A stretch of DNA of 64,000 nucleotides from an uncultured Gammaproteobacteria bacterium (GCA_964443025.1 CAYUEL010000002.1:2916-66915), one strand, 5' to 3'; positions 55,557-64,000 are shown, counted from the stretch's first letter. A program made the numbers and translations. The notes: generated by a model not told the origin, from the sequence alone.

Positions 55557-55814
55557 TCAAATTAATTGATTAAGGCCTTTTCTTGTCTTTTGGTTTTTTA
55601 GAATCTTTTTCTCTGTTTCTTCCTCATCTACATTCAACAGCTGCCTTCGCAAGCATTGCAACTCAAAATACAGTTGTCGTATTTGACGAAGACTCATATT
55701 AGGGTTTGTTTTGGCTTCGTGAAAAGCTTCTTCCAAATTTGGTAATAGTTTAAGACCTTCATCCTTGTTCATTGCGTTTAACATCCTTGTTTTACGGTAA
55801 GGATCTTGGATCAA
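55557..55814 (-). CDS. Hypothetical small protein (85 aa)
   Basis: ORF only. Confidence 0.25.
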   Translation of the reverse strand: MIQDPYRKTRMLNAMNKDEGLKLLPNLEEAFHEAKTNPNMSLRQIRQLYFELQCLRRQLLNVDEEETEKKILKNQKTRKGLNQLI

Positions 55815-55911
55815 TTCTGTTGATCTGTCAAAACAGTTGTATTTATGTGCTCTATCAATATCAGATCATAATTATTTAAGGCGGGTATTAAACAATTTTT
55901 CGGTTCTAGCT

Positions 55912-56340
55912 TTAGTAAAATGATTCCAAAAAAATAGGCACCTTATCGGTAGTCCAAACAGGAACGCCTGTTCCAAAAAAGTCTTTGTCTTCTGTCCAAA
56001 TCGAACAATTGAGCGCCATGGCAGTGGCTAGAACAGGCCAATCCGCTGCATCACGCGTGGTTATTCTCCTTTTGGCATCTTTTTCATGGACGATATAAAC
56101 ATCGTCGCCCACAATATTTAACAAGCATTCGAGTTTAGATAACACCTCAAGAGCTGCGTGGGGAGACAATCCTCGTTTTTCAAAAAGAACGGGTAAATAT
56201 TTTTGTGCATCTTTCATGCAAACATCCGGTGTGAAAAAGCCTACTTTGCGCTGGTAAGTAAGTAACAGCTCTTTTACTTGTTTTCCAAGCACAGCGCGAA
56301 TAAGTATGTTGGCGTCCAAGACAATCCGATTATCTGTCAC
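55912..56340 (-). CDS. vapC: PIN-domain ribonuclease toxin (VapC-like)
   Basis: N-terminal IVLDANILIRAVLG (PIN Asp), downstream acidic residues (WTEDKDF). It overlaps the upstream antitoxin gene by 4 nt. Confidence 0.8.
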   Translation of the reverse strand: MTDNRIVLDANILIRAVLGKQVKELLLTYQRKVGFFTPDVCMKDAQKYLPVLFEKRGLSPHAALEVLSKLECLLNIVGDDVYIVHEKDAKRRITTRDAADWPVLATAMALNCSIWTEDKDFFGTGVPVWTTDKVPIFLESFY

Positions 56341-61275: not shown

Positions 61276-61284
61276 GAAGGAATC

Positions 61285-64000
61285 ATGCTCTCGCTTAAAA
61301 ATTTAACGAATGCAAGTGATGCGCTGGGTTATTACCAACAGGTGCTCGATTATTACGCGGGCAGTGGTGAATATGCTGTTCAAATGAAGTGGCAAGGCAA
61401 AGTGCTTCATGCACTTTTTGGTGATAAAAAACCCACATTAAATGATTTTAAAAACTTGCTGGATGGAAAATTACCCAGCGGACAACAGCTTGGGCGCATT
61501 GAGAACGGAAAAACCCATCACCGCCCCGGTATCGACTTAACCTTCTCGGCGCCCAAGTCTCTTTCTATTTTAGCACTGATTTATGGTGACAAGAATATTC
61601 TTAATGCACACATCACGGCAGTGACACGCAGCTTGAAATGGCTTGAAAATAATATTTTGCAAACCCGGGTTAACGGTGAACCTAGCCCTGCGGATAGAGT
61701 GGCATTTGTGAAGTTTTTAGAGTTTTTCTCGCGTGAACTGGACCCGCAAATTCATACCCATTGTGTGTTATTGAACCTTTGCCAAAGCCTCCAAGATGAT
61801 AAAATACGCTCTATTTTTTCCGATTCAGTGTTTCAAAACAAAATGCTGGTAGGGCTTATTTACCGAAGTTTTCTAGCCATTGAAATTCAAAAACTGGGTT
61901 ATGAAATTGAAATTACCAGTGATAAAGGCACCTTTGAAATTAAAGGAGTACCTAAGTCCCTCATCGATTTATTCTCAAAGCGCAGCGCACAAATTGATGC
62001 ACAAGCCTTGGCATTGGGCCGTGAAGATGCAAAATTTAAAGCCCTGTTAAATTTAACCACCCGAAAAAACAAAATCCCTGAAACAGCCATCGATAAACAA
62101 ATTGAACAATGGAAAGCGCAAATAATCGAGCTTTCTAAAAATCTAGATGTGGGCCTTGATAAAGGGTTTGAGCAATTTAAAATCAATCACAAGTTTCGTC
62201 TTCGCGACAGTAAACTCATTAGTGGCGAAGCCATTCAAGCCGGCATTGCAAAGCTTGATGAATTTAAACGCATGACCACCAAACAAGAAATCATTTATGA
62301 AGCGACCCGTTTATCGTTAGGGTCTGTATTACCTAAAGCCATTGAAGCGGCCTTTGAGCGTGCACTAGGTTCAAGGCTTATTTTGCCTATCCAGCAAAAC
62401 GAACAGGAACGCAACCAACATCAGCAATACTACATGTCCGCTCACAATGCAACGCTGGGCCAGGCACTGCAAATGAATGCTAAACAAAACCATATAGCAT
62501 CGCTACGCTCAAACTTAATCAGTCTTATCGCAAGTCGATGGATTCTCTCCAAAGATTTGCAACACACAGCTGATAACAGCGTTTATAAAAGCTTGATTGA
62601 TTTTGCATTCAGCGCTTCGCGCGAAATGGTGGTCGATAACCTTTGTCCCAAAGTCGATAAAGTCTTTTTGGAACGCGCAAAAAACTTTGCTTCATTCTTG
62701 GGTGCTCATCTGTTTCATGTGAGCGTATCCGGTGTCGATAGAAAAATCTGCACGCAAGCTGGACTCAAGAGCTGGAGTTTAGATTACCTTCACAAAGCCG
62801 TGATTAAACCTGGCAGTCTTTTGGTAGTGCACGGCAGTGAAAAGCTTTTATACGCCCAGATGCGCGATATCAGCGAAATTGCCAAAACCCATCAATGCAA
62901 AATCATATGGGCTAATGATAAAAATATCCATGCTCTGGACAGAAGACTTTCTGCCGTTGAATTAGTCGCACCTTTTCTGCCGCGGACCAGCTTTGAAGTG
63001 GGCACATCACATCGCTTATCGTACGATTATACGGTGGTGGGTGCGAAAGCTTTACAATTAACCAGTTTACCCAGTGATAATTTTATTCAAGCCTTTGCCA
63101 AGCAGTATGCTTACCAAGAAAATTCGCCACTGTTATCTTACCAAAAAGACACCGTGAATTTAGCGGTGCGTGAGCATCTGGTTCAAAACAATACTTTGCG
63201 TGATGAGGCCATGACCGTCAAAACACACGTGCATCAGTATTTAAGTTTAGCCCAAATGAAGCGCCCTACCGCTTATCAGGTGGGCGATGTGATTCGTTTG
63301 AAAACATTAGCGCGTGCTGGAATTCAAGAATCATCAAAGGCAGAAGTTACGTTCAACTCTTTACGTAAAAATAAAACACCCACCTATTCGGCTAACGATC
63401 ACTTTAGCATCACAGCAATTCAGGGCAGTGTGTTAACACTCGTACACAGTCAACATCATACGCAGCATACATTGAACGTGGAAGATATCACCCACTTTCG
63501 CGATCTAGCGGTGTTCACGCAGCGCTCGATCGCTATTACGGTGGGTGATAAACTTATTTTACCGGCCTTTGATATTTATGGCAAACCTTACCAAAATCAA
63601 ATGGGCATCATCAGCGCTCTCGATCGCAAAGCCATCACCCTAAAGTTACCTCATGTGAAAAAACCGTTTATACTGCATTTAGAAGATAAACAAGGACTAT
63701 CACGCACAATCTATGCCGATTACGGTTATTGTGTGCATCCATCCGCGCGCATACCGCACCTAAATCATGCGCATCTTGATTGCCGCGCTGTTCACAGCAT
63801 TAATGCACTACGTGTGTTAAGTGGCATGAATGCAAAAGTCACTCTTTATACCGATAGCCCGCAAGGGGTAATGCGCGCATTAGAATCCATTAAACCTGAA
63901 ATGCAACCCATCACTGCGTTAACTTCGTTTCAAAACTCCGCTCTTGATTCAAACACGGTACTCTCTAAACACATTCCTGATACTGATTTAAAAGCCACTG
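61285..64000 (+). CDS. MobF-family conjugative relaxase/helicase (TrwC/TraI-like), 3'-truncated by window end
   Basis: It is not in the ORF track because no stop is reached. ATG 61285 with AGGAAGG upstream. Tandem catalytic Tyr pairs (GYYQQVLDYYAG), GIDLTFSAPKSLS and HTHCVLLN (HxH metal site) align with the TrwC N-terminus. The frame stays open to 64000. Confidence 0.85.
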   Translation, partial: MLSLKNLTNASDALGYYQQVLDYYAGSGEYAVQMKWQGKVLHALFGDKKPTLNDFKNLLDGKLPSGQQLGRIENGKTHHRPGIDLTFSAPKSLSILALIYGDKNILNAHITAVTRSLKWLENNILQTRVNGEPSPADRVAFVKFLEFFSRELDPQIHTHCVLLNLCQSLQDDKIRSIFSDSVFQNKMLVGLIYRSFLAIEIQKLGYEIEITSDKGTFEIKGVPKSLIDLFSKRSAQIDAQALALGREDAKFKALLNLTTRKNKIPETAIDKQIEQWKAQIIELSKNLDVGLDKGFEQFKINHKFRLRDSKLISGEAIQAGIAKLDEFKRMTTKQEIIYEATRLSLGSVLPKAIEAAFERALGSRLILPIQQNEQERNQHQQYYMSAHNATLGQALQMNAKQNHIASLRSNLISLIASRWILSKDLQHTADNSVYKSLIDFAFSASREMVVDNLCPKVDKVFLERAKNFASFLGAHLFHVSVSGVDRKICTQAGLKSWSLDYLHKAVIKPGSLLVVHGSEKLLYAQMRDISEIAKTHQCKIIWANDKNIHALDRRLSAVELVAPFLPRTSFEVGTSHRLSYDYTVVGAKALQLTSLPSDNFIQAFAKQYAYQENSPLLSYQKDTVNLAVREHLVQNNTLRDEAMTVKTHVHQYLSLAQMKRPTAYQVGDVIRLKTLARAGIQESSKAEVTFNSLRKNKTPTYSANDHFSITAIQGSVLTLVHSQHHTQHTLNVEDITHFRDLAVFTQRSIAITVGDKLILPAFDIYGKPYQNQMGIISALDRKAITLKLPHVKKPFILHLEDKQGLSRTIYADYGYCVHPSARIPHLNHAHLDCRAVHSINALRVLSGMNAKVTLYTDSPQGVMRALESIKPEMQPITALTSFQNSALDSNTVLSKHIPDTDLKAT

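Follow-up and report, generated by a model that had tools for sequence, protein, structure and literature searches.

The right-hand end of a 64,000-nt stretch of DNA from an uncultured Gammaproteobacteria bacterium (GCA_964443025.1, CAYUEL010000002.1:2916-66915; the whole stretch is called the window below) raises the question of whether a large polyketide synthase (PKS) cluster sits beside DNA that can pass from cell to cell. A trans-acyltransferase (trans-AT) PKS cluster occupies 2588-49654, and a sequence-only reading had proposed that the genes at 55557-64000 are the DNA-processing module of an integrative and conjugative element (ICE) or a plasmid. We analyzed this region by open reading frame (ORF) and domain searches; domain and family scans used Pfam, NCBIfam, PHROG and PDB and included permissive thresholds. 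The genes listed in that reading were all found where it had placed them, and two more, an ArdB/KlcA gene and a DUF6471 gene, were missing from its list. From these genes, from a predicted F-like origin of transfer (oriT) and from comparison with related loci, we conclude that the region is very probably a relaxosome module with an establishment block, belonging to a divergent, F-like, MOBF-type transferable element so far seen only in Legionellales-type genomes. Related loci are cited by label: L001-L003, L007 and L088 are modules in Legionellales metagenome-assembled genomes (MAGs), whereas L090 and L096 are Rep3/ParAB plasmids.

A predicted F-like origin of transfer

The repeat-rich non-coding region of the sequence-only reading is present as a spacer of 30% GC that carries an array of GATATC sites (Table 1), and we predict that this spacer also holds an F-like oriT, which that reading had not mentioned. 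At 58676-58663 the minus strand, complementary to traD and traI, reads CAGCAAC-ACC-GTTGCG-ACA-GGTGT/GTGTATTT (the slash marks the predicted nick), so that a hairpin, GCAAC-ACC-GTTGC, is followed by GACAGGTGT/GTG. The F oriT, read directly on the strand complementary to the tra genes, is CAGCAAAAAC-TT-GTTTTTGCG-TGG-GGTGT/GGTGCTTT. The pattern TTGCGNNNGGTGTG occurs once in the 64 kb, at 58663-58676 on the minus strand, and also once each in L002, L003 and the F oriT. The nick core, TTGCG-N3-GGTGT/G, is that of the F plasmid and is kept in six related loci as well as in F; alignment located it in L007, in L088/L089 and in the outgroup plasmids L090/L091, on the same strand and just upstream of the accessory gene. 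The window thus shows the arrangement expected of an F-like oriT, in which an inverted repeat precedes the nick site on the strand opposite to that of the relaxase gene. Placed as in F, the predicted nick lies between positions 58664 and 58663, and GTTGCGACAGGTGTGTGTATTT is the candidate cleavage target of the relaxase. A scan of 53-64 kb with Rfam returned no match.

Between the nick core and the accessory gene, seven of the 16 GATATC sites of the window fall within 180 nt, and this array is a putative set of binding sites for the accessory protein. Arrays of other repeats (GAAATC, GACGGC and GGCGCC) stand in the same place in the relatives, and L088 shares GATATC with the window. An oriT that is served by a specificity protein is usually built in this way, with a nick core that stays constant and repeat arrays that differ between elements. 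A second inverted repeat, GGCGCG-TGA-GCGC, lies at 58625-58645 on the minus strand, approximately 20 nt beyond the predicted nick on its 3' side; the close clade keeps it, and the outgroup and F lack it.

An accessory protein, a TraD-like ATPase and a MOBF relaxase

The accessory gene, traD and the relaxase gene follow one another either translationally coupled or 9 nt apart, each with Shine-Dalgarno (SD) sequences. The N terminus of the accessory protein, MK..I.LRL..EYEK.K.YAKK..L..NQ..RDL, is common to seven syntenic homologues in alignment, and we therefore place the start of the gene at 59036; a GC-rich hairpin with a T-run at 58981-58998, inside the longer form of the ORF, also supports the shorter start. 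The sequence-only reading had called this gene MobC-like, a label that we abandon: no MobC profile matched even at E values up to 10, nor did any Pfam, NCBIfam or PHROG family. The best weak matches were to ribbon-helix-helix-type antitoxin families (DUF6290, 0.074; RelB, 0.12), and the strand-helix-helix pattern at the N terminus suggests a relaxosome protein with a ribbon-helix-helix-like N-terminal part. Since a comparison of profiles with F TraY did not reach significance and the structure modelled from the single sequence was unusable (predicted local distance difference test, pLDDT, 41), this fold is proposed from the sequence pattern.

The coupling ATPase had been described as of TraD/TrwB type, and a match to PF10412 (TrwB_AAD_bind) agrees with this, as do Walker A (GATGSGKT) and Walker B (ALVIDE) motifs; two N-terminal hydrophobic segments resemble transmembrane segments. 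The TraD_Ftype model TIGR02759 aligned with the protein end to end at 433 bits, under its equivalog cut-off of 521 bits. Judged by these profile scores, the coupling protein is F-type-like and lies outside the curated TraD_Ftype equivalog. With TraD of F-type plasmids from Legionella it shares 31-32% identity.

The relaxase exceeded the cut-offs of PF08751 (TrwC; 218 bits against 25), NF041492 (MobF; 231 against 100) and TIGR02686 (relax_trwC; 200 against 145.5), and the relaxase domains of pCU1 TraI, F TraI and R388 TrwC in PDB aligned with it at about 1e-36. The tandem Tyr pairs and the HxH motif noticed earlier are both there: GYYQQVLDYYAG contains Y16/Y17 and Y23/Y24, in alignment with pCU1 TraI and F TraI, and HxH is retained as HTH. 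The first His of the metal triad is changed to Glu at about residue 146 (FLEFFSRELDPQIHTH) in the window and in five full-length close relatives; the outgroup (L090/L091) and P0010 have Gln here, and pLPP TraI and R46 TraI have His. The Glu carboxylate could still bind the relaxase metal. Full-length relatives are 53-57% identical to the window's relaxase and 1875-1936 amino acids (aa) long, and all of them have an AAA_30 helicase from about residue 1020 and a DUF7146/Toprim region. The relaxase looks like F TraI rather than the short TrwC.

A small clade in Legionellales-type genomes

The TraD clade is small, comprising seven proteins at 57-67% identity with the next level at 38%. A relaxase homology search missed the 53-57% relatives owing to its word prefilter and was left out of the estimate of family size. 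All seven come from two Legionellales-type MAGs, SO_2017_GW1_269 (three modules) and OFTM369 (two). The L003 and L007 modules are 64 kb apart on one contig of 97,274 nt, L002 and L088 are in one MAG, and multiple modules within a genome bear different repeat arrays. One clade further out, this set of three genes is found on Rep3/ParAB plasmids and, in one case (L095), as a remnant in a chromosome. Searches of 72,556 plasmid records found no near-identical DNA, and metagenome scans with protein and alignment queries found nothing closer than 31%. The flanks of the relatives are cargo-like, with genes for metal efflux, a kinase, leucine-rich-repeat, WD40-lipase, Fic and Gabija-like proteins, and with toxin-antitoxin pairs. 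At 751-3472 of L007, on the leading side of the module, an OLD-family TOPRIM ATPase and a UvrD-type helicase form a Gabija-like defence pair.

Anti-restriction genes, a putative toxin pair and small ORFs beside the predicted origin

The features of the region are collected in Table 1, including the ArdA-like anti-restriction gene of the sequence-only reading, which PF07275 matched.

Table 1. Features at the right-hand end of the window, with strand and supporting evidence; oriT, the GATATC array as binding sites and the antitoxin are predictions.
Feature	Coordinates	Strand	Evidence and remarks
orf85, small conserved ORF	55557..55814	-	tblastn, 51% identity over 45 aa to the leading side of L002
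PIN-domain (PIN_2) putative toxin	55912..56340	-	PF10130, 2.1e-40, full length
Putative antitoxin	56337..56612	-	4-nt overlap (GTGA) between its stop and the GTG start of the PIN gene; longest form extends to 56744, likely start Met at 56612
orf121	56735..57100	-	same operon direction as ardA
ArdA anti-restriction protein	57122..57646	-	PF07275, 3.5e-19, 146/155 profile positions; 70.4 bits against a cut-off of 27; full-length domain
ArdB/KlcA-type anti-restriction protein	57718..58155	-	PF03230, 2.9e-27; 95.1 bits against a cut-off of 25
Divergent promoter region, ardB/DUF6471 gene	58156..58286		three TTGATGTTTAT-like repeats
DUF6471 gene	58287..58538	+	PF20075, 4.3e-18
Repeat-rich spacer	58539-59035		GC 0.30
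Predicted oriT nick core	58615..58705	-	hairpin, nick sequence, second inverted repeat
Array of seven (T)GATATC(A) sites	58752..58933		direct and inverted repeats
Relaxosome accessory gene	59036..59425 (long ORF from 58976)	+	SD sequence; stop overlaps traD start
Type IV coupling protein, F-type TraD-like	59425..61275	+	PF10412, 7.9e-103
MOBF relaxase, first 905 aa	61285..64000, open at window end	+	PF08751, 2.7e-64

A homologue of ArdB stands in the equal position in L002 (43% identity) and in L007. Both ardB and ardA are transcribed away from oriT (57122-58155, with the nick at about 58664), and the same is true in related loci. Upstream of ardB there is a good match to a sigma-70-type promoter on the minus strand, TTGACA-16-TACAAT (11/12), at 58219-58192, back to back with a promoter-like site on the plus strand at 58225-58254. 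The three TTGATGTTTAT-like repeats, at 58173, 58235 and 58256 (within 58173-58271), overlap these back-to-back promoters of ardB and the DUF6471 gene and may be an operator for a repressor.

The DUF6471 gene is the only oriT-adjacent gene that points toward oriT. Homologues occupy the matching position in L003 (72% identity) and L002, and KorA replaces it in L007. Its product is a putative small regulator, likely a repressor. A four-helix model had a pLDDT of 65; the top Foldseek matches of this model were XRE-type regulators at E values above 3, which are not significant, and we made no use of them.

Further from oriT, the pair that had been described as phd-vapC stood in part. A PIN toxin is present with an overlapping upstream ORF, and the family names of both were lost in the profile searches. 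The toxin fits PIN_2 (138.5 bits), and the VapC models fell under their cut-offs (PF01850, 18.7 against 23.6; TIGR00028, 15.8 against 73.6), so we rejected the VapC label. No Phd/YefM match to the partner was obtained in Pfam, NCBIfam, PHROG or PDB at permissive thresholds, and its putative antitoxin role is drawn from its position, with the 4-nt gene overlap. A resemblance of toxin residues 41-69 to transcription activator-like effector (TALE) repeats in PDB was discarded as an artefact of phmmer summation (LPVL..GL.P), no single stretch being significant.

Two small ORFs, orf121 and orf85, had no family match in Pfam, NCBIfam or PHROG. The former also appears as a gene call on an independent Logan contig of 1.7 kb that is identical across ardB-ardA. 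The latter is, by alignment, the outermost gene that the window has in common with a related element.

A proposed order of transfer

Every step of the transfer outlined here is one that we infer. The ribbon-helix-helix-like protein would bind the GATATC array beside the nick core and help to load the relaxase, which would then cut the minus strand at GGTGT/G (58664/58663), hold the 5' end on an N-terminal tyrosine and unwind the DNA. The TraD-like ATPase would pass the complex to a type IV mating channel not encoded nearby, and the strand would exit 5' to 3' toward lower coordinates. Because the strand would leave in that direction, the order of entry would be the DUF6471 gene, ardB, ardA, the toxin pair, orf85 and the PKS side, with the relaxase operon last. 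In the recipient, second-strand synthesis would precede expression of ardA and ardB from the sigma-70-type promoter, with primers from the primase-like C terminus of the relaxase (known from full-length relatives) and with the DUF6471 protein as repressor.

The requirement for a second strand follows from the orientation of the anti-restriction genes. Under the rule described for leading regions, the transferred strand is the template of genes that point toward oriT (PMC11541004), and psiB and hok in the leading region of F and ardA and ardB of R46 all point that way. The ardA and ardB genes of the window point away from oriT, so that the transferred strand is their sense strand and their expression would need second-strand synthesis. 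The DUF7146/Toprim C terminus of the relatives, being primase-like, could supply the priming.

The mating channel and the type of element

No mating-pair-formation gene of a type IV secretion system (T4SS), integrase, tRNA, Rep gene or Par gene is present in the 64-kb window. Similarly, six related loci (among them L001-L003, L007 and L088) have no mating-channel gene, integrase or tRNA within 10 kb, and 21 kb of a 32-kb and a 93-kb contig of the Rep3/ParAB plasmid relatives contained no channel genes. The proposal of an ICE or plasmid DNA-processing module is therefore retained for the module itself, with its relaxase, coupling ATPase and F-like oriT, and is no more than possible for the element type, none of channel, integrase or Rep/Par being in the window. 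For an ICE, we found no integrase, att/tRNA boundary or VirB4-class ATPase in the window or within 10 kb in the relatives; for a conjugative plasmid, there was no Rep, Par or channel gene within the 64 kb. The source contig is 73,959 nt long, which leaves 9,959 nt outside the window, approximately 3 kb of them needed for the rest of traI. A complete F-type channel cannot fit on this contig because these 9,959 nt compare with approximately 16 kb in pLPP.

Several observations weigh against a functional transferable element. Neither a mating channel nor an integrase, att site or replication gene came to light, and mobility itself is a prediction. A search with pLPP TraC gave no match on the relevant contigs, and two candidates that it returned belong to other samples; its sensitivity was low, and the negative should not be taken as evidence that a channel is absent. 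The fold of the accessory protein is proposed from a sequence pattern, the relaxase is cut at the window end (residue 905) so that its helicase and primase parts are supplied by comparison with relatives, and the first His of the metal triad is replaced. The ardA and ardB genes run opposite to F psiB and to R46 ardA and ardB, contrary to the leading-region rule of PMC11541004. Furthermore, not all related loci are whole: L001 (9332-9645) is without the nick core, and a 2026-aa lipase/WD40 gene runs right up to its accessory gene, and L095 (10001-12907), a chromosomal island between prmA and fis/purH, has an insertion sequence (IS) in the relaxase's place. On the other side, the visible ORFs of the window are intact and the catalytic tyrosines and HTH are kept.

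On the source of the channel we lean, at about even odds, toward an element mobilised in trans with channel genes located elsewhere. A lesser but real chance goes to a self-transmissible element, an ICE or a large conjugative plasmid, whose channel genes would lie more than 10 kb away, beyond the contig, and be separated from the module by cargo that includes the PKS cluster. A coupling protein of the F TraD type normally works with its cognate F-type channel, such channels are common on Legionella plasmids and islands, and on the 97-kb MAG contig with two modules 64 kb apart approximately 42 kb between them are outside the stretches examined. However, F-like elements place traD-traI directly after the channel genes and here the two genes come directly after oriT; six related loci have no channel gene within 10 kb, with two or three modules per genome; and the TraC search, for all its low sensitivity, gave no match on the relevant contigs.

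Transfer in trans also leads to a broader and more tentative proposal, which we regard as possible and would not press: a Legionellales-restricted family of channel-less islands or plasmids, each with its own oriT, specificity protein, F-type-like coupling ATPase and relaxase-primase, present in two or three copies per genome with different repeats, and borrowing an F-type or possibly the Dot/Icm channel in trans to move large cargo, for example effector genes or, here, a trans-AT PKS cluster of approximately 50 kb. A review of integrative and mobilizable elements notes that few mobilisable plasmids are known to encode a coupling protein themselves, and that those few have MOBC relaxases (PMC5704250). 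Mobilisable elements that pair a MOBF relaxase with a coupling protein of their own would be unusual.

It is unlikely that the contig of 73,959 nt amounts to an almost complete mobilisable plasmid with the PKS cluster as its main cargo: outgroup copies of the three-gene set are carried by Rep3/ParAB plasmids and the size is plasmid-like, but there is no Rep/Par in 64 kb, only approximately 7 kb remain after the relaxase, and the Rep/Par genes of the relatives adjoin oriT, where here anti-restriction and toxin genes and then the PKS are found. It is similarly improbable that the module is a stranded, immobile remnant of an old integration with the PKS cluster as ordinary chromosomal DNA beside it, for although decay in the family is documented by the oriT core missing from L001 and the IS standing for the relaxase in L095, and the window has no integrase or att site, the visible ORFs are full length against their relatives and there is no damage to the catalytic residues, Walker motifs, nick core, repeat array or translational coupling.

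The polyketide cluster and its neighbourhood

The sequence-only reading had described the PKS cluster as cargo of, or adjacent to, a transferable element, and the coordinates bear out adjacency. The last gene common to related elements, orf85 (55557), is 1.7 kb from the second of two aminopeptidase genes associated with the cluster, and no boundary feature was found on either side. The module has a GC content of 0.435 and the PKS of 0.378; we rejected GC as a boundary marker, since the modules of the relatives are also richer in GC than their flanks. The link between module and PKS is adjacency only.

The two aminopeptidase genes, at 39808-40653 and 52990-53844, encode methionine aminopeptidase (MetAP; M24) paralogues within or beside the cluster. 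A role in self-resistance is possible and would hint at a MetAP inhibitor as the PKS product. Between the cluster and the second of them, at 49682-52894, lies an ORF of 1070 aa with a GC content of approximately 0.32, in which a PolyA_pol head (nucleotidyltransferase) at residues 600-727 is the only recognisable part; its product looks effector-like. All of the PKS-associated proteins that were looked up were singletons at 90% identity in a collection of 15 billion proteins.

The locus thus offers a concrete and testable predicted oriT and relaxosome beside a large, so far unique polyketide cluster in a Legionellales lineage. If the element moves, the PKS cluster is on the early-entering side of oriT, and the module would then be a route for the horizontal spread of secondary metabolism in intracellular bacteria.

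Comparison with known conjugation systems

On present evidence the module is a divergent but conventional conjugation module. With the F plasmid it shares the nick core, on the same strand relative to the relaxase gene, an end-to-end match to the TraD_Ftype profile, the tyrosines Tyr16/17 and Tyr23/24, and, with F TraI, a long region after the relaxase domain. The differences from F are an identity of only approximately 28-35%, a Glu for the first metal-binding His, traD-traI directly after oriT instead of at the close of a 30-kb tra operon, and no homologue of TraM or TraY in profile searches; moreover, the window's relatives add a DUF7146/Toprim C terminus, and the leading genes have the opposite orientation. 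Among annotated plasmid records, the nearest are F-like plasmids of L. pneumophila of the pLPP type (TraI, 28.5%; TraD, approximately 31%), but these keep the classical F order, in which traD-traI come after 16 kb of channel genes, and have His at the metal-ligand position.

In gene order the window agrees with traK-traJ-traI of IncN R46/pKM101 and trwABC of IncW R388, which have the same succession of oriT, small accessory gene, coupling protein and MOBF relaxase, with ArdA and ArdB on the far side of oriT and relaxase domains (pCU1 TraI and TrwC) that align at approximately 1e-36. These systems differ in that a VirB-type channel adjoins theirs, their ardA and ardB point toward oriT, their relaxases have approximately 1000 aa and their coupling proteins are of the TrwB and not the TraD_F type.

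The Rep3/ParAB plasmids L090 and L096 share the accessory gene, TraD (37%), a TraI with Toprim and the nick core. They differ in having a replication and partition backbone beside oriT, with no anti-restriction block seen on either, and Gln where the window has Glu. The Legionellales MAG modules are closest, with TraD at 57-67% and relaxase at 53-57% identity, synteny that includes ArdB and DUF6471 or KorA, the nick core and the His-to-Glu change of the relaxase; what sets them apart is the repeat specificity in most copies and neighbouring cargo other than a PKS cluster. By sequence and gene order, the modules L001-L003, L007 and L088 are the true family of the window's module.

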